A DNA stretch of 63,265 bases, filler included, from Reclinomonas americana ATCC 50394 (Eukaryota), in assembly GCA_048213135.1 (NCBI GenBank). It is 5 parts of 4 records of this genome, joined end to end, with 100 filler letters (N's around TTAATTAATTAA, not from the genome) between each part and the next. Parts side by side here need not be neighbours in the genome. Positions count along the whole stretch, not along the records: positions 1 to 22,006 come from PS015071.1; 4 more parts are not named here. The stretch is one strand, 5' to 3'. Shown one piece after another: positions 3,587-45,000 of this stretch (the first letter of the stretch is position 1; each line of letters starts with the position of its first letter). The notes beneath the pieces were generated by a model. That model was not told the origin of the DNA. It worked only from the letters and a program-made list of their open reading frames with translations, and ran no database searches. A program made the position numbers and the translations under genes.

Positions 3587-6500
3587 ATGAAACACGCTTC
3601 TCTTCTGCTCGTGCTGCTGGGGCTCGGCCTCCTGCTGGCATGTCTGGCCAGCACTGCTCGTGGTTTGTTCACCCCCCTGGACATGCCCTCTGCATGCGCA
3701 CGTTGAGGGCTGTGATTGACACTAAGATGCCCGTTCTCTCTTGTCTCTTCTGCAGCTGCCTTTTACGAGGATGCCTCGCTCGGTGAGTCGAACAAACCAA
3801 TGTGCGTCCGCACAGCACATTGTATTTATCGTTTGTGACTGCTGCAGAGGATGATGGCGAGGAGGGCATCCTGAAGGCCATCTGCACGCCGAACGGTGGC
3901 GAATGCAACCCGAACGTACGTCTCCTTGCCTACTGCTTCACCTCGTCGTCGGTGAAAATCACTTATCTCGATTGCGCAGGGCCAATGCAAGAAGGGCAAA
4001 TGCGAGTGTCACTACAAGTTGCGTCTCTCCCTCTTCCTCTCACACTCTTTCCTATCTGTTATTAACGAACGCGTTGCGCGTGCAGCTGCTTCAACTTTGG
4101 TGGAAACGACAATCGATGTGACTAGTTGCGCATATTGGTTTTTCCGAGTGGATTCTCCCGCTTGCCTAATCTGTTTTGTTGTCGACTGGTGCAGCTGGAA
4201 GGGACCGAAGTGTACGTGCCACAAGTACGCCACTTGGTGAGTGCAGAGTACCATCGTTGCCGCAGCAGCAGCACGCCATCCGCTGACTGCGTTTTTCACA
4301 GTTCGAGCCACGGACACTGCGATTCCAGTATGTTCGAGTGGGCCGCATTATTTTGTGAGGTTTTTGATCCGGTTTCTCACACTGTGAGAGCACAGACGGC
4401 CTCTGTGTCTGCGACAAGGGCTACTATGGACAGAAGTGCAACAAGAAATGCAGCGTTGCGTCTCTCCTCCTCCCATGTTACGTGCTGCCGGTTCGACTGC
4501 TGAGAATCTCTTGCTTTCCGCAGGATGAAAACTCGTGCAGCGGTCACGGCTTCTGCAACGCCAAGGGCGGCTGCACGTGCGAGAGCAACTGGGCTGGGGT
4601 GTGTGATTGCCAAGCTTCTATCGTTTGTGTGCAGAGATTCTGTTGCTTACCTTCCTCTCGCCTGACGCAGCCCGAATGCGAGAAGTGTGCTCCGAACTAC
4701 TACGGCGACCAGTGCAAAGTGTTCTGCTCGGTTCGTGCTTGTGGTGTAACCTTCCTCCACGCCAGGCATCTGCTCTCATTGCTTGCGCCCTGCACACAGG
4801 ACAAGAAGACATGCAACGGGCATGGCAAGTGCAACAAGCACGGTACGTGCGATTGCAAGGAAAACTTCTACGGCGACAAGTGCGACGTGTTCTGCTCGGT
4901 GAGTGCGTGGTGTGTCACGCAGTTTGCATCTTCTGCCCCTCATGGATCCTCGCACGCAGGAGAAGAAGTCGTGCAATGGGCACGGCAAGTGCCAGGACGA
5001 CGGCTCGTGCGATTGCAAGGACAACTACTACGGCACTCACTGCAGTGTGTTCTGCTCGGTTTGTGCACACGGCACTTCTCTCTACTGCACGCATGCTGCT
5101 GGCTCACACACTCTCAACGCAGGACAAGGACACTTGCCACGGACACGGCAAGTGCAAGGACGACGGCTCATGCAAGTGCAACGAGAACTACTACGGAGAC
5201 AAGTGCGGCGTATTCTGCTCGGTTTGTGCAAACTGCACTTCTCTCATCTGCTTCCATATGCCGGTGGGCTCACACCCTCGACGCTCGCAGCCTCACGACA
5301 CGTGCAATGGACACGGCAAGTGCAAGAACAATGGCTCGTGCGACTGCGAAGACAACTACACTGGGGTTCGTTTGCGGAGTCTCGGTTTGCCAACACGTCC
5401 GTACGTGTGTGCTGCAGCAATTTGTGCTCACCACTGCCACTGGGTTCCTGTGCTATAGGACTCGTGCAACAAGTGCGCCGAGGGATTCTCGGGTCCGAAA
5501 TGCACCAAAAAGCCCCACCCCGACAGCTGGCGAAATGGCATTCGCAGTCGCGGCAACGCCGACGGCGCTGGCACTGACTGCACCAACCCGGTGGGCGGCG
5601 GTGTCACTGGCTCCGAGGCCGTGTGCAAGATCGCCTGCAATGTTGCGTTTTTGTTGTGTGCAGCACGCACGCATGTGTGCGGGGGAGAGAGGAGGAAGCT
5701 GATGTGTGGACACAGGCGACTTTAACGTGCAGTGGAAACGGCGAATGCCTGCCCGATGGAGGCTGCAACTGCACGTACGGCTGGGCTGGGGTGCGTGCCA
5801 TTGTATGCACGCAAGCAGTGCTCAGTGTCAACAGTCGATAACTTAGTGTTCTCGTGGTCACACAGTTGCACTGCGACCAATGCGCTCACCTTCACTGGGG
5901 CCCGAACTGCACCTTCTGCGAGGTACGTGTATGTCCCTTCCTGCATGGCAACAGTATTCCCACTCACCTATGCAACTCACAGCCGAACATCACCTGCAAC
6001 GGCCACGGCACATGCAGCACTAATGGAACCTGCGAGTGTACCGGCAACTTTAACGGGGTACGCTGCTTTTGTGGAGGCTGTGCTCAACACTGCATAAGCT
6101 CATCAACACACATTTGCAGGCCGACTGCTCCACCTGCACTGATGGCTTTTATGGTCCCGACTGCAACGTCACCTGCAGTGTTCGTCCATCGTCTCTTTGT
6201 TGACAGTCGCTCGCTCTCTCGACTGATGGCACCTCGACTGATGCACAGGCCAACACCACTTGCAGCAACAATGGAGTCTGCAGCAACACCACAGGAAGGT
6301 GCCTGTGCGACTTTGGCTGGGATGGGGTTCGTGCTTTTGATCTGTGACCGTGATCTGACGTGCGCCACCGCCCTCACCACTCTCGTCGTTATGCAGGGTG
6401 ATTGTGCTAGTTGCGCTGCTGGTTTCCTCAACTTTAATGACTCTTGCCAGCCGTTCTGCAACGTTGCGTGCTCACAAGAACGTCATCAAAGAAGACTGTT

Positions 6501-7350
6501 GACTCAAATCTCTTCTCCGATATCACAGTCGACTGGCGACTGCAACAATCACGGCACGTGCACCAACGGCACATGCGAGTGCGAAACCCTGTGGGCTGGA
6601 GTGCGTCACTTGCACCACTGCCTGCCAGTCACTGCCTGTTGTGCATTGACTCCTGCGTGCACACACTGCAGGTCCACTGCGAGAATTGCGCTCAGTCCGG
6701 ATTCTTCGGAACCAACTGCAGCGTTCAATGCGACGTTGCGTGCGCTCGCTGTGCAGGCAGGCCTGGTGTTGCACACCATGCTCACACAATATGTATATCT
6801 CTTAGGCGGCCACCAACTGCACCAACCACGGACAGTGCAGCAGGAACGGATCATGCACCTGCAACGACGACTTTACCGGAGTGAGTCTCACTCGCCTCTA
6901 CTCCTCGAGCTCTGTTGCAGTTCCTGTTATTGACTGTGAGTATACGCACAGCCCAACTGCGCCAACTGCACGGAGAACTATTACGGCGACAATTGCGCTG
7001 TCTTCTGCGAGGTGCGAACTGATTATCATTATTGTTACATTTGTTTGTGACTGCTGACACACTTCTCTCCTCCATTCTCGTGATCGCCACGCAGGCCAGC
7101 GTCACGTGCCTGGGCCGCGGCACATGTGACGGCAACGGCACTTGCGTGTGCAGCGGCAACTTTGCCGGGGTAAGTGCAGTCGTCAGCAGTCGCCACTGCA
7201 AACAACACCCACTCTCACTCGTTACTCCAAATCGAGCAGCCATACTGTGAGCTTTGCAAGTACGGCTTCAGCGGCGACAATTGCACGGAGCGGGAGAACA
7301 ACTGTGATGTTGCGTCGGCGCCCTTGAGCACAACCATTGGCCGCATCACA

Positions 7351-7439
<89 letters not shown>

Positions 7440-8168
7440 CCCGCCGTCAATTGCACGGGCAACGGAATCTGCTGTGTTGACGGTACTTGTGCCTGCAATG
7501 CGAACTGGACTGGGGTGCGTCTGCATGCAGTTCTTGCACTCAACACCCGCTCGCACTACGCTTCTAACCCACATTCCTGTACACAGCCTCACTGCGATCA
7601 GCCGGCGAAGAACAACACCAACACGACGTGCTCTGTTGCGTACTCCCGCAGTGTGCTTCGTGCCACGCCTGTGTCGGGACTCACCTCGCTGTTCCTCTTC
7701 GCAGTCCAACTCCGATTGCAACAACCACGGCAATTGCACCAACGACAAGTGTGAGTGCAATCCGGGTTGGTGCGGCAAGACGTGCCAGATCCCCGTCACC
7801 AACAACTCTACCTGCCAGACTGGTGAGTTGTGTGTGACAACAAGCGCGCTATTGATGTAATCACTCATCTGCTGCAAAGACAACGACTGCCTCGCCCAAA
7901 CCCTCGGTGCGAGGGCCGGCAATGGCGGACTGATTGACGGTGGGCGGTGTGTGAACAACGTATGTGAGTGCGTGTCGGCCAATCCGGGCCTGCACTGCCA
8001 GTGCCGCGCAGGTCAGTCAGTGAGCGCACCATTTCCTCTGAGCATCCCCTGTCCCTTACCGAGCGAGCACACGCAGACTCGATTCTGTGCCCGGCGATCG
8101 ACGCGCGTCTCGCCGTCTTTGACTGGCACACCGGCAATTTCCTCGGCTGTCTCGACGTGTGCCAGTAG
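3587..8168 (+). CDS. Secreted tenascin/laminin-type EGF-repeat protein, ~30 short introns
   Basis: Signal peptide MKHASLLLVLLGLGLLLACLASTA. Many CxGHGxCxxxGxCxCxxxYYGxxC units rebuilt by splicing. No TM segment; ends CLDVCQ-TAG at 8166-8168. Confidence 0.9.
7354..7438. repeat. (CA)n microsatellite in an intron
   Basis: Perfect CA run inside the intron starting at 7309. Confidence 0.95.
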
Positions 8169-11248: not shown

Positions 11249-14200
11249 ATGGACGACGGAAGGTTTCACGTGACTGTGAAGCTCGACAATCGCCGTGCAT
11301 TCCCGTTCCACATTGATGGTGTGTGCTTGCGTGTGTGTGTTCGCGTGTCTGCTGGTGTGATAATGAGTGATGCATGCCTCATTCGGTCGGTGTCACATCA
11401 TCATCATCATCGCAGAGACAACAACCCCGTCCGACATCAAGTGGGAGATTGCGGATGTGGCCAATGACGTGCTTGTGGTGCCACCGGTGAGTGTGCTATG
11501 GGTGACTCTGATGCAGAATTGTGGTGGCCTCCAACACACACACGCGCCCGTTTCTGTTTTCTGTGCAGACCATGAAAATCATTCGCGCGGGCAAGGTCAT
11601 GGGCGACGGCACACCCATCATGGACACCGACACCACCTCCGGTTCTGTGCTGCACATGACCGCCACGGGACCACTTGGCATTTGGGTCCGCTATGGTGAG
11701 CATTCTGTGTGTGAACCCGTTTTCCGTTATTTCGCTCCAGCACATCGTATTAATATTCCCCAAAAACAGGATTGCGAAAAGCACATCGGCTGGATACACG
11801 ACCTGCTGATAGTTGCGTCGCCTGCACATGTACTCTTAAAGGAAGCTTTGTTGGAGGGCTGGATTTCCTCCACTTATTGTGTGATTCTAAATTGTCGTTT
11901 ATTCTGACCCTTTGCCCTTTCCTCTATCCTTCACAGTGGAGAAGCTCACGGTCGGCGACCTGAAGCGCACGATCACGCAGCTGACGGGCATTCCCGACGC
12001 GCAGCAAGAGTACGCAGCGCCGTTGAATGTGCCACGCATTGCGCAGCAGGATGCGCTGCGACTGGCCGACTTGCTGCCGACGGGTGCCTACGGCGCCATG
12101 TTTACGCTCATTGTCAGCAACCCGGAACTGGTCGACGTGCCGGCGGTGGTCCGCGTGCGTACCACCAATGGCTCCGATGCGGTGGAAGTGCAGACCGAGT
12201 GTTGCGTCAATGCGCAAGAGTGCATGTCGTGGTTGCTTGCTCATATCTCCCTCTCTTTCTTTTCGTGGTCGGTATCAGTGACGGAACCTGTCTCCAACCT
12301 CAAGTGGGCCATTTGCTACAAGACTGGCTGGGCGGCCTTTGCCATTCCGCTCTGCAAGGGCAACAAAGTCCTCAAGGACAACTTGAGGTGCGGGCGTGTG
12401 ATCATTGTTTCGAATTCCGAGCTGCAACTCACCCGCAATCCTCGCAGTTTGATGGAGCAAGGCGTGTGCGACGGCGACGAGCTGTGTGTGTATTCGAGTC
12501 AGTGGCCCGGCATGTACGTGATGACGAAGCATCGCACGGCGATCCGTCTCGATCCGCACCCGAGTGACACGGATCGCCTGACGGTGTTTGACATGAAGCG
12601 CATCACGATGGAGGAGACTGGAGTGCCGATGGAGAGCCAGGTGGGTGCAGTAGCGCCTCCCTCTACAGTCTCGATGTTCGCACTGTGGCTGACCTTTTGC
12701 GTGCCCACAGTGGTACGCTGGACTGGACGGAGTGCACGAGAGCACGCTGCTGGCCAGCCTGCTGATGGGCGACAACATTGGCTGCGTGTTTGTGCTGCAG
12801 ACAGAGCCGCCGGCTGGCTACCGTGCCCGCTCGCCTACTCGCGCACGCTCTCCGTCTCGCGCTCGCTCCCCAACGCGAGCGCGGTCACCGACCAGCTCCT
12901 CCCGACAACATCACGGTCACCACCGCAGCAACAGTGGTGGTGGCGGCAGCGGCGGCGGTGGTGGAAACGGACAAGCTCCGAGCACGCCCCGTGGCAGCTC
13001 GATTATCGAAGCGCGCGACCGGCAGCGTCAGAGCATTGGCACCCCGCGACAGCGCCACTCGCGCAGTCACATGGATTCGCCGCGCATGCAACGCCCGGAC
13101 ACGGCCACGTATCTCGAGTCGCCGAGCACGCCGCGCACACCTCGCGGCAGCGCAGCTACTCGCACCGTCGACTCACCGTCGGCCTACTCGGACGCGAGTT
13201 CGTACATGGAGGCGCCACTGACGCCACGCAACCACTACCATCCGACACCAGTGCAGCAGCAACCGCCGCCGCCACCGCCGCAGCAGCAGCTGGCTCACCC
13301 GCAGCCGTACCGCCCGCAGCCTGTAAGACCACAGCCGCAGCAGGCTCACGAGCCACCTCAGTCGCCACGCATGCGTCGCTCGAACAGCATCTCGCAACTC
13401 GACCTGCAGTACCAGCAACATNNNNNNNNNNNNNNNNNNNNNNNNNNNNNNNNNNNNNNNNNNNNNNNNNNNNNNNNNNNNNNNNNNNNNNNNNNNNNNN
13501 NNNNNNNNNNNNNNNNNNNNNNNNNNNNNNNNNNNNNNNNNNNNNNNNNNNNNNNNNNNNNNNNNNNNNNNNNNNNNNNNNNNNNNNNNNNNNNNNNNNN
13601 NNNNNNNNNNNNNNNNNNNNNNNNNNNNNNNNNNNNNNNNNNNNNNNNNNNNNNNNNNNNNNNNNNNNNNNNNNNNNNNNNNNNNNNNNNNNNNNNNNNN
13701 NNNNNNNNNNNNNNNNNNNNNNNNNNNNNNNNNNNNNNNNNNNNNNNNNNNNNNNNNNNNNNNNNNNNNNNNNNNNNNNNNNNNNNNNNNNNNNNNNNNN
13801 NNNNNNNNNNNNNNNNNNNNNNNNNNNNNNNNNNNNNNNNNNNNNNNNNNNNNNNNNNNNNNNNNNNNNNNNNNNNNNNNNGCGCTGCTCCAGCAGCAAA
13901 TGTTCGAGCAGCAGCAGCAGGCGCAGGCGCAAGCGCAGCTACAGGCGCACAAGCAGGCGCAGCTGCAGGCGCAGCAGCAGGCACAGGCACAGGCGGCCGC
14001 GCGCAGTCTGATGCCGCAGCCACCGATTCCACGCGATCGGCAACCGTCGCCCAACTCGGCGAGTCTCGCCGACTCCATGTCGCCGCATGGGCTCTACAGC
14101 TACGACTCGACGGGCGAGTGGTCGTCGGGCGCCTCGCCACGCATGCCCGCCGCGTCGGCATCGCACGGACGGTCGCACAAGCGGCACGAGAGTGCGATTG

Positions 14201-22473: not shown

Positions 22474-25400
22474 TTAGCCAGCGCAGTCCTCTTGGTATGA
22501 GCCGTCTTGCAGCATGCGCTCGACCTTGGCTCGCCCACTGTCCATGTTGACGAGCGATGCATTGGCGGAATCGCGCTCTGCCAGCAGCCATGCGACTTGC
22601 TCGCGGATGCTGGGGGCGAATTGCAGGAGGCCACTGTGGAGGGAGGTTGAGAAGGAGAAGAGAGTTGCACAGACTGTTCGATTTCTATTCGTGCTTTCTT
22701 TCTTTCGCTCCCTCACTCTCTCTCTCTCTCTCATCTCTTCCTCCCTCCCCTCCCCTTCCCCATCCCCTTCCCTTCCCTTCCCCCGAAACTCACCCACACA
22801 CATACACATGCGCGCCACCACGCTCAAGCATGTCCGTCAGCGGCTCACGCCAGGTGGTCATCAGGTCGCTGACGAACTCGGGCTTTTGCGGCGGGTAATC
22901 CGAGTATGCCACCAGCATCTTGGTGAGCGCACCGCATTCGAGTGCACGCGCCGTCAGTTCGTGGTGGGTCAACAACTGTGGCGCCCGCACGCCCCACAGC
23001 AGCCACGCCGGTCCCAGCTCCACGCCCTGTGCTCGCAAGCGTGATGAGCATGACAATCACACACCCTCACTCCCTGTAGACTCCCCCCTCTCCGCACCTG
23101 CTCACGCATCAGGATGCGTTCCTGCAAAAAGCCGGCGTGCGGGGCAATGCCGGCTCCGGCCGCCACCTGGATAATCGGGCGCAGCGGATCTGTCGGCAAG
23201 CGGAAGGTGGAGGGTCGCACAAAGACCCAGCTGCGATCGCCGGCGCGCAGGCGGTGCAAGTAGTCGGAGCAGAAGCCGTGGAAACCGACTTGCGGATTCG
23301 ACAGGCGCTTCGAGGTGAGCGACACAATGTTGGGGTTGACGCGCGACGACGACGAGATGGAGTAGAAGCGCGGCTGGATGACGGCCAGGGTGTCGAGGAA
23401 GAGCGTCCACGGGGTGAGTGCGGCCAACTGCGGGAACTGGCGCAGCACGGAGAGGGAGGACTGGTGCGGAGCACGCACGAGCGTCTGATACGCATCCTGC
23501 GGGAGGCACATAACGGTAAGCTTGTGGAGAAACACCGAGGCACACANNNNNNNNNNNNNNNNNNNNNNNNNNNNNNNNNNNNNNNNNNNNNNNNNNNNNN
23601 NNNNNNNNNNNNNNNNNNNNNNNNNNNNNNNNNNNNNNNNNNNNNNNNNNNNNNNNNNNNNNNNNNNNNNNNNNNNNNNNNNNNNNNNNNNNNNNNNNNN
23701 NNNNNNNNNNNNNNNNNNNNNNNNNNNNNNNNNNNNNNNNNNNNNNNNNNNNNNNNNNNNNNNNNNNNNNNNNNNNNNNNNNNNNNNNNNNNNNNNNNNN
23801 NNNNNNNNNNTCAACACGCAACGCCCGTCATCAGCTCCAATTGCTGACGCTCGGCACACAGGCCGTGATCCGCGGCCACCGCAGTCAGAAGGCGCAGCAG
23901 CTGACGGGAGCACGGACCGTGCAAGTCGAACACGTGCGTTAGTGCATACGACAGCGTGACACCGGCGTCGTGGTGCAGTACGGCCTTGATACGGGCGGCG
24001 GGATCTGCAGACTAATGTATGAGACACGGAGGTGTGTGTGCACACACTGAACAAGGTGACGCAACTGCCGGGCACCTCACGCACACGCAGTGCCGCCGAT
24101 GGCGACGCCTTTAGCAGTTGCAAGCATTCCTCGACCTCCACCGGCGAGTTGGTGCCAAACACGCCCAGATGGTCACCGGTTTCGTACCGACAGCGCCCCG
24201 CCGTGTGCCGCACCACGTCGAATTCGGTGTGCGTGATCACCTGGCCGGAGCCGGCCGGCAGTAGGTTGAAGGAGCGCGTGACGGCGGCCAGACCCGGGTT
24301 GCGCGCATCGAGACCGGAGCAGTCTGAGAGTGGGAAGCGAGCGGTAATGTCGTTCAGCGGCGGACTGCCGCACGTCTTGACGGCCTCGATGGAGCAGTGA
24401 GTGCTGACATGGGGAGAGTGAGTTGAGAGAGTGGGTGGTGGGTGGGGGACTAATGTGCTCACCGGAACTCATCGAGTGCAGACGTCTTCTTGCCGGCCGT
24501 CGTTGCAGCGGAGTCGGCGGGCGCAGCAGCGACATCAGCGACGCCACCACTCACGGTGGCCTTGTAGGCCTTCCAGAATTGTTCTTCCCACGCCATGAAG
24601 TCGCCTTCGAGACTGCACGGGTGAATGTAGGTCAGCGACGCTGCGTGTCACTCGCTTTGTGGTGGCCCCTCGCTTGTCGCTCTGTGGTGGTGCTCCACGC
24701 TTGTCGCTCTGTGGTGGTGCCCCTCGCTTGTCGCACTGTGGCGGTGCCCACTCACTTGTCGCTCTGCGGATGGTGCCCACTCGCTGGTCGCTCTGTGGCG
24801 GTGCCCACTCGCTGGTCGCTCTGTGGCGGTGCCCACTCGCTGGTCGCTCTGTGGCGGTGCCCACTCGCTGGTCGCTCTGTAGTGGTGCCCACTTGCTGCG
24901 CTCTGTGGTGGTGCCCACTTGCTGCGCTCTGTGGCGGTGCCCACTCGCTGGTCGCTCTGCGGATGGTGCCCACTCGCTGGTCGCTCTATGACGGTGCCCA
25001 CTCACTTGTCGCTCTGTGGTGGTGCCCACCCGTGTGCCCTGCGACGGTGCCCCCCTCGCTGCGCTCTGTTACGGTGTGTCGCTCTGTGGACAGTGCCCAC
25101 TCGCTTTTCTGCCCACTCGCTGCCCTCAATGACTGCTTCCTCATTGTTTGCTCTCTGGTGTCATTCTGCGACAGATCCACTCCGCTCCTCTCCCGTATCT
25201 CCCTTGTACGCAACTCGCTGCCATCATCGCCCTCGCCACGCGGCAGCATGGGCGTCGCCCCCAGCTCCGTCAATCGGCGCTCCAGTGCCTTGCCGACCAT
25301 CTGGTACCGCTCCGGGAACGTCATCTTGTTGCCGAGACCAAAGATCTGAACATGCAAAAGTCAGTTGTCTGCAGTCACACACTGCCTCTCAAACAAAAAC

Positions 25401-28919: not shown

Positions 28920-31900
28920 TCATCGCAACGCCAGTCGGCGCTTGGGAGTGAGAACGGCATAGTAGATCCACACAGAGCAAAGGCCGTGAACGTAGGGGAA
29001 GAGGCGGACGGCCACAGAGAACTTGGCCTCGCGGTGTGCCACCGTATGCAGCTGCGTGTCCTCGATGCCACGCAAGATGTGTGCGTCCCAACCCTGACGA
29101 GTTGCGCAAGTGAGTGAGTGCACGCAGTGAAGTGAATGATGGGTCGAGATCAAACACGCGCACACACCTCTTCCCGCAAGAGTCGGAGATTGAGTTTAAA
29201 GTTGAGTGGGAAGCCCTCAATGTCGTAACTAGCGCGACGAATGCTCTCGAGCGCCGCGTCGTGCTCCTCCTCGGCAAACGGCCGTCCGCATCGCTTCTCC
29301 TCAAACAGGCGCAGCAAGTCGGAGAACACAGTGGAACTGTGTCAACAAGAATAAGCGATCTTCCTCTTCTCTTCTCGACAGGCACTGCTCGTCGACGCAA
29401 CTCGTGCCAGTTGGTGGCGCGAATGTGGTAGCGCAGTTTGACAACGAGATCGTGCACGGACTCTTGCAGCAGGAACCGCGCATCCTCCACCAACAGCTCG
29501 TCAATGGACTCGTACACCAATGGTGCTTGCACTGTGGACACGACGCCGGGTTTTGGGCGTTGCAAGGTGAACAGCGGCTGCCATGCACGCCAGTCCGACA
29601 GGTTGTAGGTGATGGTGGAGGGCGAGGTGGTGTCCTGAATGTTGGCCCACACATTGTCTTCGCTGATAACGCAGCCAATCGACTTCAGCGGGCAGTGCGG
29701 ATCCAACACATTGAAGACACGACCGAGGCCGGCATCAATCAGCTGCGACAAGGCGGATGAGAATACGGCGATGGGAGGCGATGCGGAAAAACCTTCTTGA
29801 AAAATACCGTGACAGTGCCGCCAGGCTGTCGCCACAGCACGTACGCCGTGGTGCCGGCGGGAACCGAGTGGCCCAACACAAGGCGCACATCCTGCAAACC
29901 GACGAAGCAGTTACACATCTCACATCTATTGCGCTATTCACAGAGAGAGATACGAAACCTCATTGAGGGCAAGCATGAAATTGCACAGCAGAATGGCGTG
30001 CTCCTCCTCGTCGCCGGCGAGCAGGTCAAGGAATTCCTGCAACGAGAGATGGTGAGGGGGCATGGATGGAAGGTACGTATGCGAATCAACGCAACTTGCG
30101 ATGTGGTCCACACATCCGACCGATCGTAAAACGTCAAGTAGTCCTCCACAAACGGGATCAATGACACGAAGCGCACCAGCAGCGAAATGTCTTCCATGCC
30201 CTCTGGTGGCGATTGCGGAGTGATGTATCGGCACACCAAGTCGGCTTCGCCATCCAAGTTGCCGACGAGCACACGGATCATGCGATCGCGGTACTGCTGA
30301 CTGAGCGACTGCTCCCAGTGCAGCAGCATGGCGTGCAGGCCATCGTCGAGACGAGATTCACGCTGTTTGTGTGTGCGCGCAAGGGTGAGGTGAGTATCGC
30401 TGATAATTGGTGCGAGGAGGAGAAGCGACAACACCACCCACCATGTCGGCTGCAGAGGACGGTTTCGGCAGGTTGGGATCCAGACTGACGTACAAGGAGA
30501 GCACCGACGGGGGCACTTGTCCGCGTCGCTGTACGCGCCCCACTGCAGTCTCCCAGCGACTGGCGGGCGCATCGGCACTGGCACGCCCACTGCACACACC
30601 GATCGCAGTTATTCATCACCACAGGCCGAGGTGCTGCCGACAACTTTGTGAAAAAACGCAACACCGACTGCTGCGACTGCGGTGACCATGGCGCGCCGGG
30701 GCGTCGCGACGATGAGCGACGAGCAGCTGGCGGCGACAATGGCCGATCGCGATCGCGACTCCGTCGCAACTCCTCGAGTTCCTCGATACGACGACTCACC
30801 AGTGCTGGCGTGTAGGCGACGTTCACTGGTGGTGTGTCGACGATGAAGGCGCCCTCCACCTGGGTGGAGGAGGAAGGGGGAGAGGGTGAGGGAGAGGGTG
30901 AAGGAGAGGGGGAGGAGGAGGAGAAGGGAGAACGGAAAGGGAGAGGGAGAGGGAGAGGGAGAGGGAGAGGGAGAGGGAGAGGAGAGGGAGGAGAGGAGGG
31001 GAGAGGGGAGAGGGGAGGAGGGGAGGAGGGGAGGAGGGGANNNNNNNNNNNNNNNNNNNNNNNNNNNNNNNNNNNNNNNNNNNNNNNNNNNNNNNNNNNN
31101 NNNNNNNNNNNNNNNNNNNNNNNNNNNNNNNNNNNNNNNNNNNNNNNNNNNNNNNNNNNNNNNNNNNNNNNNNNNNNNNNNNNNNNNNNNNNNNNNNNNN
31201 NNNNNNNNNNNNNNNNNNNNNNNNNNNNNNNNNNNNNNNNNNNNNNNNNNNNNNNNNNNNNNNNNNNNNNNNNNNNNNNNNNNNNNNNNNNNNNNNNNNN
31301 NNNNNNNNNNNNNNNNNNNNNNNNNNNNNNNNNNNNNNNNNNNNNNNNNNNNNNNNNNNNNNNNNNNNNNNNNNNNNNNNNNNNNNNNNNNNNNNNNNNN
31401 NNNNNNNNNNNNNNNNNNNNNNNNNNNNNNNNNNNNNNNNNNNNNNNNNNNNNNNNNNNNNNNNNNNNNNNNNNNNNNNNNNNNNNNNNNNNNNNNNNNN
31501 NNNNNNNNNNNNNNNNNNNNNNNNNNNNNNNNNNNNNNNNNNNNNNNNNNNNNNNNNNNNNNNNNNGGGTGAGAATCTCGTTGGGTGCCAGACGATCCAT
31601 CTGAGTTTGCACACACACCGCTGTCAGCTCACTAGCATGTGGTCCCCCCAGCACTGCATGAACGCAACAGCTGTGGTCGACGACTCCTCCACGACAATCT
31701 CGTCAAACAAATTGATGTCGATGCTCTCGTGGATGCGCTGCACATCGTGTTCCTCATCGGATCCCCACGCGAGCGGAATCTGCTCGTAACGCCCACAGTA
31801 AGCAAAACATGTGATGACATCAGAGTACCGACCATTCACAAACCTCAAACTGCAGCTGCAGGCTCTCGTTGAAGATCGGATCGGGTCCGCGCTGCGTTGC

Positions 31901-37651: not shown

Positions 37652-38492
37652 NNNNNNNNNNNNNNNNNNNNNNNNNNNNNNNNNNNNNNNNNNNNNNNNN
37701 NNNNNNNNNNNNNNNNNNNNNNNNNNNNNNNNNNNNNNNNNNNNNNNNNNNNNNNNNNNNNNNNNNNNNNNNNNNNNNNNNNNNNNNNNNNNNNNNNNNN
37801 NNNNNNNNNNNNNNNNNNNNNNNNNNNNNNNNNNNNNNNNNNNNNNNNNNNNNNNNNNNNNNNNNNNNNNNNNNNNNNNNNNNNNNNNNNNNNNNNNNNN
37901 NNNNNNNNNNNNNNNNNNNNNNNNNNNNNNNNNNNNNNNNNNNNNNNNNNNNNNNNNNNNNNNNNNNNNNNNNNNNNNNNNNNNNNNNNNNNNNNNNNNN
38001 NNNNNNNNNNNNNNNNNNNNNNNNNNNNNNNNNNNNNNNNNNNNNNNNNNNNNNNNNNNNNNNNNNNNNNNNNNNNNNNNNNNNNNNNNNNNNNNNNNNN
38101 NNNNNNNNNNNNNNNNNNNNNNNNNNNNNNNNNNNNNNNNNNNNNNNNNNNNNNNNNNNNNNNNNNNNNNNNNNNNNNNNNNNNNNNNNNNNNNNNNNNN
38201 NNNNNNNNNNNNNNNNNNNNNNNNNNNNNNNNNNNNNNNNNNNNNNNNNNNNNNNNNNNNNNNNNNNNNNNNNNNNNNNNNNNNNNNNNNNNNNNNNNNN
38301 NNNNNNNNNNNNNNNNNNNNNNNNNNNNNNNNNNNNNNNNNNNNNNNNNNNNNNNNNNNNNNNNNNNNNNNNNNNNNNNNNNNNNNNNNNNNNNNNNNNN
38401 NNNNNNNNNNNNNNNNNNNNNNNNNNNNNNNNNNNNNNNNNNNNNNNNNNNNNNNNNNNNNNNNNNNNNNNNNNNNNNNNNNNNNNNNNNNN

Positions 38493-42043: not shown

Positions 42044-45000
42044 ATGCGCGCGCTTCTCGTTTGCTTTGCACTTCTCAGTGCGTGCATTGTGCTCGCCAAT
42101 GCACACATTTGTGTGATTGAGCCGCATCAACGCGGGTGCGTGCAGACAGAGAGCAGTCTCTCTCTGTTGGTTACCAAGACTCACTCTTGTGTCTCTCTCT
42201 CGTGACTCAGAAAGCTGAACTTGGGTGATGGTGAGTGTGATTGTGAAAGCGTCTCTCTCTTTGTGTGTGTGTATCAGTGAACTGATGCACGTGTGTGTGC
42301 AGGAGGCGATCGTTGCGTTCATGGGCGCTTTTCGGAGAAATGCAAGAATGGAAGAGAGAGAAAGAGAGAGAGAGAGAGAACAGAAGCAGGAGCTGTTGTT
42401 GCATTATGCTACTCTTTCCGTCTCCTCTCTCACCCTCCCAACCACAGCATCGTGCTTCCGCCACGGAGCGCCCTGCGGCGGTCAGCCGAGCGGCCCGGTT
42501 GTTCGCTCGCTGCGCTCTGGCTCGCGCTACACTGTGACCTGGCAGCAGAGTTGCGTGCACTCCCTTGCCTCCTCTCCTCCCTCTCTACCCTTATGACCCG
42601 CTTGCAGACTACAACCACTTCACCGTCGGCGACGCCGGTTTCATGGATGTTTCGTGGGCCGCTGGTCCCAACCCCGCCGACGCCGATTTCAGTCTCCTCG
42701 GAGCTGTGCCGTTGCGTTGGGAACGAAACGTGGGGAGGTCGCCAACCGTGCCTCACATCTCTCGCCACAGGGACAACAACTCGCACTGGCAGGGCTCGCA
42801 GACGAACTACACGCTGACAGTGACGCTGCCGAACTCGAACTGCCCGCAATGCGTGCTGCGCTTCCGCTACGTGCCGCACAGTTCCGTCAGCACCTCGCAC
42901 AGCCTCCCTGTCAAGTCGTGCTCACATTGGCGCAGAGCCCGGAGAGGACATCTTCTACCAGTGTGCCGATGTGTCCATTACGCCGAACGGCGAGGAGCAG
43001 CCGCTGAAGGACCGCTCCCCCGCAGAGTTGGTGCCGGTGGCGCCCGGTGCGCAACCGTTTGTGCCCAAGGACGGTGTGAAGCGCGAGAATGTCAACCTCT
43101 ACGGCATTGCGTACAGCCCGTTTGACGATTTCAGCGAGTTTGTCAAGATCGACCCCACGACGGGCCAGATGATTACGGTGTCAACGCTGCCGTTTGTCGT
43201 CCGTGATGGTGCGCGGTGGCCGAGGGGGGAGGAGATGGTGGTGGTGGACCGTCGCACTCACTCATTGGTGTGCAAAAAAACAGGTGTGGGAGTGGGCTCG
43301 CCGCTCTCCGATCTGAATGCCCTCGCCCGTCTCGATGCCTCGGCGTTTATTGCGGATCAGACGGGTACCGTTGACAATGGTCGCGGCATCGTGTTTTACC
43401 TGGCGTCGCTGAACAACACGCTGGGTGAGTGGCAAAGAAGGGGCAAGGAGGGAGGGCGAAGAGGGAGAAGGGGGAAAGGAGGCAAAGAGAGAAGGGGATA
43501 GGAGTGAGGGAGAGGTGGAAGGGGAGGGACAGAGTTAGTGAGCGAATGCGTGAGTGTCAGTTGTTGACTTTCGAAGCTCGAAGAGTGAGCGCATCGAAAT
43601 ACTTCTTGCTGCTGTCAAGGCTGTCACTGTGCACTAGTCAGAAGACATCAGCTGTTTTTATGATCCTGTTTATTGGGGGGAATTCGTAGTCGTCGTCATT
43701 GTTGTTGTTGTCGCTTTAATTAGAGACAACTGCAAATAATAGTGAGGGAGTGCAGCGACAAGAGAGTATGCGAACGTGAGTGAGTTTGAGTTGTGCGGGA
43801 ATGAATGTGACTTATACAGCTGAACAGGCAACTCGCCCAACCTCTTGCTGTCGGTGACGCACATGGATGGCAAATTTTCGGTGCTGCGCCTGCCCGACAG
43901 CATTCTGCCCATCAACGCCATCAACTATAACCCGCGCGGTAACAAGATTGTGGGACTGAGGTGAGAGAGAGGGGAGAGATGGGGGAATGAGAGGGCAAGA
44001 GGACACTTCGTTCTAGGTGCATTACTCTTACTGTTAATTCACGAACGATACAGCAGTGTGCCATCTTCTGCGTTCTCCCTTTTCGTCACTGTGTCACGAG
44101 TGTCTCTTTCATGTTGATTTCTCTGCGCCGTATCTGGAGTACCGGTCTTCCGATACCCATTCCTCCAAATGCAGCACTCGTCCGGTTGCTGGCAAGCCTG
44201 GTTTCTTCCAGAGCTTCGTCTACAGCATCGATGTTGCCACCGGTGCCGCCTCCCAGATTGCCACGTTCGGCCCCGACGACACCTACATCAACTTCCAGTG
44301 GTCGCTGATTGATGAGCCGCGCGGCATTTACTACCTGCTGATGGGCAACGAGAACGACGCGCCCGGACTGACGGCCAAGTTGCGGGCGAACAGCACATCA
44401 TATTCTCTCTTTTCCTGACTCATTTCTTGCCTTCACGAGCAGGCTGTTCACCATTGATCTGCTCACCAACACCATGGTTCGCGTGGTCGACGTCGATGTC
44501 TCCAAGTTCACCATCGCCTCGATGGAGGTCGACACGCGTGGCGCGCTCTTCACGTACTCGCCAGGGCTCACCACTGACGCGACCGTCGTGTGGACATTTG
44601 TCAAGCTGGACCCGACGACTGGTGCGTGTATATATATGTTTTTTCCCTTTCAACCTCTTCATTGACACTGACAGTGATGTCATTATTGCAGGCGCCATCA
44701 CGCCCCTTTACCAGGTCGGCAACGCCAACTCGTTCGAGCGCTACTACGGCGGCAGCGTGTACGGCTGGGATGCGGCGAACCATGTCTTCTTGTATGCGAT
44801 GCGCAGTGGCAGCGACAATTCCAGCACTGTTGCGTCTGTGAGGGAAGGGAGGGGGAGAGTGGGAGAGGGATAGAGAGGGAAACAGTGGAGAGGGATAGAG
44901 AGAGGGAAACAGTGGAGAGAAGAAAGATAGTGTGAATGATTGTGGGTGAGTGCATGCACATGTGCGTATGGTGGATATGTGTGTCTTCGTGCGCACTCAT

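Follow-up and report, generated by a model that had tools for sequence, protein, structure and literature searches.

The question raised by this locus is how introns that occupy the same place in the repeat units of a single gene can begin with two different kinds of 5′ splice site. The gene lies at 3587..8168 (plus strand) of a 63,265-nucleotide stretch of DNA from Reclinomonas americana ATCC 50394 (assembly GCA_048213135.1), composed of five parts of four records joined with filler and called the window throughout. It is predicted to encode a secreted protein with many EGF units, with a coding sequence for 784 amino acids and 31 introns of 57–131 nucleotides. Our analysis suggests that ordinary GT-AG introns throughout the window have a second 5′ splice-site consensus, GTTGCGT (in rare cases GTTGCGC), used where the exon ends in a base other than G. 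We place the probability of this reading at roughly 0.65. The class, written GTTGCGY below (Y, T or C), would comprise approximately 20–25% of the introns.

The spliced translation of the multi-EGF gene is open from the ATG at 3587 to the TAG at 8166-8168. Its N-terminus resembles a signal peptide and is followed by a long series of Cys-rich units. All 31 introns have GT-AG ends, and all those from 4455 onward are in phase 0. The exons 4800-4898, 4960-5058 and 5123-5221 each match EGF_Teneurin (PF23106), with E values of 6e-8 to 2e-6 and scores of 28.4–33.0 bits (curated Pfam cut-off, 24.3), and EGF_2 (PF07974) is also matched by single exons above the Pfam cut-off.

Thirteen introns share one location, one codon past the last Cys of an EGF unit and in phase 0. 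Six of them begin with the heptamer GTTGCGT: at 4455..4461 after AGC (Ser; intron 4455-4523), 5642..5648 after AAT (Asn; 5642-5715), 6463..6469 after AAC (Asn; 6463-6528), 6735..6741 after GAC (Asp; 6735-6805), 7309..7315 after GAT (Asp; 7309-7439, with a long (CA)n run inside) and 7635..7641 after TCT (Ser; 7635-7704). The other seven carry ordinary donors at the homologous position, namely TCG|GTTCGT (4731..4736), TCG|GTGAGT (4899..4904), TCG|GTTTGT (5059..5064 and again 5222..5227, the intron at 5059 having a body recently copied from the one at 5222), GAG|GTACGT (5923..5928), GTTCGT after AGT (6180..6185) and GAG|GTGCGA (7012..7017). All thirteen are on the plus strand. A preliminary description of this stretch had listed these donors and presented them as one phase-0 intron recurring after a Cys-X codon. 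When the sites were printed, every donor string was present where it had been placed, and position, phase and linker proved common to 13 of 13.

The placement of the junctions follows from the repeat pattern. The acceptors chosen for the 13 introns are the only in-frame, stop-free ones that preserve it, and with them the distance from the last Cys of a unit to the first Cys of the next is exactly five residues at 13/13 junctions. This uniform linker places the junction at the GT of GTTGCGT and not at the GC three bases downstream. GC-AG introns exist in many eukaryotes, and the true donor might be that GC, or else the second GT of the heptamer, with the heptamer serving some other function. 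Such a misplacement is very unlikely. A GC donor would add one residue in the six GTTGCGT units only, breaking the common linker, whereas the second GT would add five nucleotides and shift the frame, and no common sequence follows it. Moreover, the heptamer stands exactly at the ends of open frames, in three unrelated genes as well as in this one. The predicted junctions are therefore inferred to be the real ones, on the strength of reading frames, repeat spacing and the fit of two Pfam profiles considered below.

Once the junctions are set, the two donor types differ sharply in the last exon base, position -1. Among the 13 homologous introns this base is G in 0/6 GTTGCGT donors and in 6/7 ordinary donors (Fisher p=0.0047), and the two forms (S, GTTGCGT; C, ordinary) are interleaved along the gene in the order S C C C C S C C S S C S S. 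The contrast extends to the rest of the gene, where the non-repeat N-terminal part contains a GTTGCGT donor at 4018..4024 after CAA (intron 4018-4085), and a GTTGCGC donor stands at 4125..4131 after CTA (intron 4125-4194), both on the plus strand, in phase 2 and with A at -1. Over the whole gene, G occupies -1 in 0/8 GTTGCGY and 18/23 ordinary donors (p=1.6e-4), and the GTTGCGY share is 8/31 introns in this curated model.

The preliminary description dealt with introns in EGF repeats. The phenomenon is not peculiar to these repeats, as the same contrast appears in other predicted genes and the heptamer is in excess across the window. The other genes were called with a small in-house gene finder that is blind to the base at -1 and whose donor filter already admits GTTGCGY; introns of 50–140 nucleotides in genes scoring at least 60 and lying outside the multi-EGF gene were retained. 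In this set, G at -1 was found in 0/13 GTTGCGY donors, 14/21 GTnnGT donors and 7/21 GTnnGV donors, that is, 0/13 against 21/42 (p=7.8e-4). Combining curated and predicted introns gives 0/21 GTTGCGY against 39/65 ordinary donors (p=2.8e-7). The GTTGCGY share is about 13/68 introns in the predicted genes, and retention would break the frame for 11 of the 13 GTTGCGY introns.

Two of these genes carry recognizable domains on the minus strand. In a flavoprotein-reductase-like gene, an A|GTTGCGT donor at 24059..24065 opens the intron 24065..24005; the match to FAD_binding_1 covers profile positions 4-77, ends six residues before this donor and resumes with positions 93-135 at residue 13 of the next exon. 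In a CEP76-like gene, an A|GTTGCGT donor at 30089..30095 opens the intron 30095..30037, and the following exon aligns from its first residue with the CEP76 peptidase-like profile, beginning at profile position 8. The profile coordinates thus fit the predicted junctions at both 24065 and 30095. A third gene, on the plus strand, would encode a secreted protein from the ATG at 42045. It contains A|GTTGCGT at 42550..42556 (intron 42550-42607, across which the frame continues) and C|GTTGCGT at 42711..42717 (intron 42711-42770), both introns also being called by the gene finder. The reading frame of this gene crosses the donors G|GTGCGT, G|GTGAGT, C|GTTGCGT, A|GTTGCGT, C|GTTGCGT and A|GTTCCGT. A possible nine-nucleotide micro-exon, GAGGCGATC, at 42303-42311 is preceded by an ordinary acceptor and followed by a GTTGCGT donor. 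The predicted mature N-terminus of the product is a His following the signal peptide, reminiscent of copper-binding secreted proteins, and no exon of the gene had a match in Pfam.

Over the entire window, GTTGCGT occurs 39 times, compared with 11.6 in dinucleotide shuffles (0/100 shuffles reach 39) and 11.2 expected from a second-order Markov model, and GTTGCGC is slightly enriched (23 against 16.4 expected). The GTTGCGT sites cluster by strand in agreement with the strand of the local genes, and only 1/39 is preceded by G. They are also followed by better acceptors: with a matrix trained on the multi-EGF gene only, the best acceptor score 50–100 nucleotides downstream had a median of 4.3 for GTTGCGT, 2.2 for 6853 GT sites and 1.9 for the antisense motif (Mann-Whitney p=4e-4 for GTTGCGT against all GT sites). 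This test scored 29 of the 32 sites outside the multi-EGF gene, three adjoining runs of N having been dropped. The window contains 2942 N in several runs, including 445-632, 13422-13881, 23547-23810, 31041-31566 and 37652-38492, and one such run directly after the GTTGCGT at 23822 masks that intron. The single GTTGCGT preceded by G, at 13232 on the minus strand, may not be a donor, since the gene finder called one five bases beyond it instead, at 13227 (C|GTGGCGT).

The 21 curated and predicted GTTGCGY donors are uniform on the intron side and free on the exon side. Positions +1 to +6 are invariant in 21/21 and +7 is T in 19/21 and C in 2/21, with no consensus at -4 to -1 or at +8 to +11; the base at -1 is A in seven, C in seven, T in seven and G in none. 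These introns are found in all three phases. Apart from the donor, they look like ordinary introns. Median length is 69 nucleotides in both classes, a branch-like motif (YTNAY) lies in the last 50 nucleotides of 18/21 GTTGCGY and 53/65 ordinary introns, and the acceptor is CAG in 20/21 and 59/65, respectively. The pyrimidine share before the 3′ end is 0.62 and 0.59, GC content is alike, and the classes did not differ in how the donor pairs within the intron it opens or in overall intron folding. The bodies of the GTTGCGT introns are unrelated to one another (mean z 0.56, maximum 4.2 over 15 pairs), which argues that constraint, rather than recent copying, maintains the heptamer. The sole pair of intron bodies that are alike is the ordinary pair 5059/5222 (z 9.2); a similarity between the introns at 6463 and 7012 (z 6.0) was set aside, as it comprises the branch site and the pyrimidine tract only.

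Several observations weigh against a second consensus tied to exon ends without G. The switch to GTTGCGT is not obligatory, since five ordinary donors follow a base other than G within the multi-EGF gene: 3916 C|GTACGT, 4328 A|GTATGT, the donor at 6180, 6601 A|GTGCGT and 6881 A|GTGAGT. The preliminary description had named 6180 as the one exception, which stands for the homologous position, but not for the 31 introns of the gene. The models outside this gene come from a crude finder whose donor filter allowed the motif in advance, and at least one of them is wrong: a 216-nucleotide 'intron' at 29958..29743 is in fact two introns and an 84-nucleotide exon. If the models are right, the seven-base donors GAG|GTTTCGT (29958) and TTG|GTTTCGT (52116) follow G. 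Furthermore, G is rare before any GTTG in the window (85/628, 13.5%). Set against a 25% baseline, the 0/21 with G at -1 is a clear deficit (p=0.002); set against the GTTG background it is only a marginal one (p about 0.05), so that the usual preference for G is firmly absent, while active avoidance of G is only marginally shown. Finally, the tree of the 13 units has no supported branch and does not demonstrate independent switches.

The wrong model belongs to the CEP76-like gene (29743-29958, minus strand), where the donors GAG|GTTTCGT and ACG|GTATTT flank the 84-nucleotide exon; donors without G at +5 thus also occur after G in this gene. Two other ways of calling introns were abandoned. A finder without a donor model recovered 28/31 known donors of the multi-EGF gene and chained the whole window into giant genes, and a local intron score computed at each GT was drowned by GT..AG pairs within long exons. 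Protein searches returned no close relative: one reached at best 40% identity, to assorted reductases, and the others gave nothing. Generic WD40 clusters were all that the Atlas yielded, and a WD40 frame matched 596 metagenome stretches, none of them a relative.

The history of the donor types can be approached through the repeats. Because the 13 introns share position, phase and the five-residue linker, the simplest reading is that the intron arose once and that its donor changed type afterwards, in agreement with the preliminary description, which had argued against a separate origin. It had proposed a tree of the repeat units to count switches. When built, the best tree required three changes (bootstrap range 3–5; shuffled labels averaged 4.5) and carried no starred branch, and the number of independent switches would lie anywhere from one to about five. 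Descent of all shifted copies from a single duplication, which the description had named as fatal to its proposal, is retained by the approximately unbiased test (one clade of all six GTTGCGT units, p=0.281). On this basis one might see in the coupling no more than a lineage effect in one gene, devoid of functional significance, every GTTGCGT unit deriving from one duplicated unit whose exon happened not to end in G; in its favor, U02-U04 are clearly recent copies. We regard this as extremely unlikely, given that the contrast repeats in unrelated predicted genes, that GTTGCGT and ordinary donors are intermixed along the gene and that the GTTGCGT intron bodies share the heptamer only. In four of the six units the residue preceding GTTGCGT is Asn or Asp. 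Codons for these (AAY, GAY) never have a final G, so that a substitution in the protein can dictate the last exon base, with the change of donor expected to come after it.

What reads the heptamer was approached through pairing with U1. Duplex energies were computed with ViennaRNA, any register being allowed, against the human U1 5′ end as printed in PMC4856993, which may differ from that of R. americana. Ordinary donors of the multi-EGF gene average -7.2 kcal/mol after G (n=18) and -3.2 kcal/mol after other bases, while the GTTGCG donors of the same gene (n=8) average -0.3 kcal/mol (range -1.4 to +0.5); with this human-type U1, none of the eight formed a stable displaced-register duplex. A scan of the window with Rfam found no small nuclear RNA.

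These energies bear directly on the possibility that conventional U1 reads GTTGCGT one base displaced, either in a shifted register, with the G at +1 replacing that at -1, or with a U bulged at +2/+3, so that changes in the last exon base and in the extra T go together and preserve U1 binding. The sequences speak in favor of it, as GGTGCGT (an exon G plus an ordinary donor) and GTTGCGT are one letter apart and a one-base insertion turns GTTCGT or GTGCGT into GTTGCGT. Shifted and bulged registers are experimentally proven in human cells (PMC4856993). Nevertheless, displaced reading by U1 appears unlikely here. Besides the absence of a stable displaced duplex, the G at +4 and the C at +5 would face two pseudouridines, which are free positions in ordinary donors, yet both are invariant in 21/21. 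Other displaced forms of common donors (GTTGAGT, GTTACGT, GTTAAGT and GTTTTGT) are not enriched in the window. PMC4856993 gives such registers as about 1.5% of human donors, against about 20–25% for the class described here. The compensatory co-evolution advanced in the preliminary description therefore survives in part: the coupling between -1 and the donor is real, whereas the register shift is not supported by the U1 pairing energies and the switch is not obligatory. The natural experiment that it saw in the repeats is weakened by the lack of supported branches in the tree, by the ordinary donors that follow other bases and by the scarcity of G ahead of GTTG.

Returning to a second consensus, the following division of labor may be proposed. 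Ordinary donors would be anchored in the exon, with G at -1 and a loose GTNNGT that pairs well with the conventional U1 5′ end, while GTTGCGT donors would be anchored in the intron, with seven fixed intron bases and no exon-side signal. The split would then be an extreme case, local to this organism, of the established trade-off between exon-side and intron-side strength. An intron might pass between the forms over time, for example by a one-base insertion converting GTTCGT to GTTGCGT together with a change in the last exon base, and such interchange would account for both donor types at one intron position in the EGF repeats. As for the heptamer itself, either a protein would recognize it or an RNA distinct from the conventional U1 5′ end would pair with it contiguously.

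U12-type donors are a known example of invariant intron positions arising from contiguous pairing. Seven adjacent invariant intron positions with no exon-side signal form the pattern that contiguous pairing with a dedicated partner produces, and we tentatively entertain the idea, as one possibility short of probable, that a variant U1 or a region of another small nuclear RNA, bearing the complement of the heptamer, recognizes GUUGCGU through seven uninterrupted base pairs in some 20–25% of these otherwise identical introns, conventional U1 serving G|GTNNGT. If true, this dedicated reader would be the major-spliceosome counterpart of the U11/U12 solution, and a one-base insertion could move introns from one system to the other.

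The usual view holds that there is one degenerate donor consensus, one U1 5′ end and rare displaced registers. A discrete, invariant and longer donor used by many introns would offer a natural system for the trade-off between exon and intron signals and for 5′ splice-site definition beyond conventional U1. In the EGF repeats, matched introns of both donor types belong to the same transcript and could be taken straight into minigenes. In practical terms, a gene finder trained on one donor model alone would put roughly every fourth or fifth junction of this genome in the wrong place.

Further features of the window deserve mention. Units U02-U04 (4800-5221) are three 33-residue, single-exon EGF units without the mid-unit intron, about 12 residues shorter than the 45-residue units; a tandem triplication of recent date seems to have produced them, and the introns at 5059 and 5222 are still alignable. 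The introns 4455-4523 (69 nucleotides), 4599-4670 (72) and 4731-4799 (69) are multiples of three without in-frame stops, and a single frame is open from 4368 to 5702; their retention would insert residues without truncation. About 50 copies of CA at 7340-7437 occupy most of the intron 7309-7439, the sole intron of the gene longer than 100 nucleotides. In the window at large, (GA)n/(CT)n heptamers are very common (more than 420 counts against 38–53 expected), and positions 53509-56550 on the minus strand hold a 1013-codon open frame of fibronectin-III/PhoD_N-like repeats with near-identical internal copies.

Comparison with known intron systems helps to place the class. GTTGCGY introns have the GT..AG ends, degenerate branch motif and pyrimidine-rich stretch of U2-type GT-AG introns; pairing with the conventional U1 5′ end, also typical of that type, was not obtained for GTTGCG donors with the human U1, from which the host's may differ. 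U12-type donors have a long, near-invariant 5′ motif confined to the intron side and lack an exon-side consensus, and in these respects GTTGCGT resembles them. The motif is nevertheless GTTGCGT in 19/21 and GTTGCGC in 2/21 rather than RTATCCTT, and no conserved TCCTTAAC-like branch box lies 10–20 nucleotides from the 3′ end; the 21 introns show degenerate motifs of the CTGAC/CTCAC/TTGAC type only, like ordinary introns. In contrast to U12-type introns, with their branch box and no pyrimidine tract, the branch motif, pyrimidine tract and length are those of the ordinary introns here, and assignment to the U12 type was rejected. Introner elements are families of introns spread by transposition that share sequence along the whole intron. 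A donor sequence extended and common to many introns recalls them, but the GTTGCGT introns share nothing past the seven bases, and an introner family was likewise rejected.

Shifted and bulged registers between 5′ splice sites and U1 were reportedly treated by Roca and Krainer in 2009. The donor described here is like these in resembling an ordinary consensus displaced by one base (G|GTGCGT), with cleavage at the GU. In Tan et al. (2016, PMC4856993), the +2/+3 bulge register accounts for 54–68 of 201,541 human donors, and displaced donors as a whole are predicted to pair better in the displaced register; the present class is far more frequent and is predicted not to pair with human-type U1. 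No paper describing the heptamer as a splice signal was found in the literature searched, although papers beyond it, among them the genome paper of the organism, may do so.

The closest parallel is found in the two major classes of U2-type 5′ splice site, AG//GU (U5-strong, left-handed) and //GURAG (U6-strong, right-handed), whose U5 and U6 interaction potentials are anticorrelated in plants and animals (Parker et al. 2022, PMC9803359). Different LUC7 paralogues serve the left- and the right-handed sites (Kenny et al. 2025, PMC11842720). As in those classes, exon-side and intron-side strength are anticorrelated here, donors without a final exon G carrying the stronger intron motif (0/21 against 39/65 with G). 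The intron motif, however, is GUUGCGU and not the GURAG that matches the ACAGA box of U6. The AG//GU and //GURAG classes are both degenerate and in normal register, whereas the present class has a fixed motif, one base longer, and G at -1 in none of 21. The trade-off between the two sides of the splice site is thus already established; what differs in this window is that the motif is GUUGCGU, is one base longer, does not vary, serves a large share of introns and shows no predicted pairing with a human-type U1.

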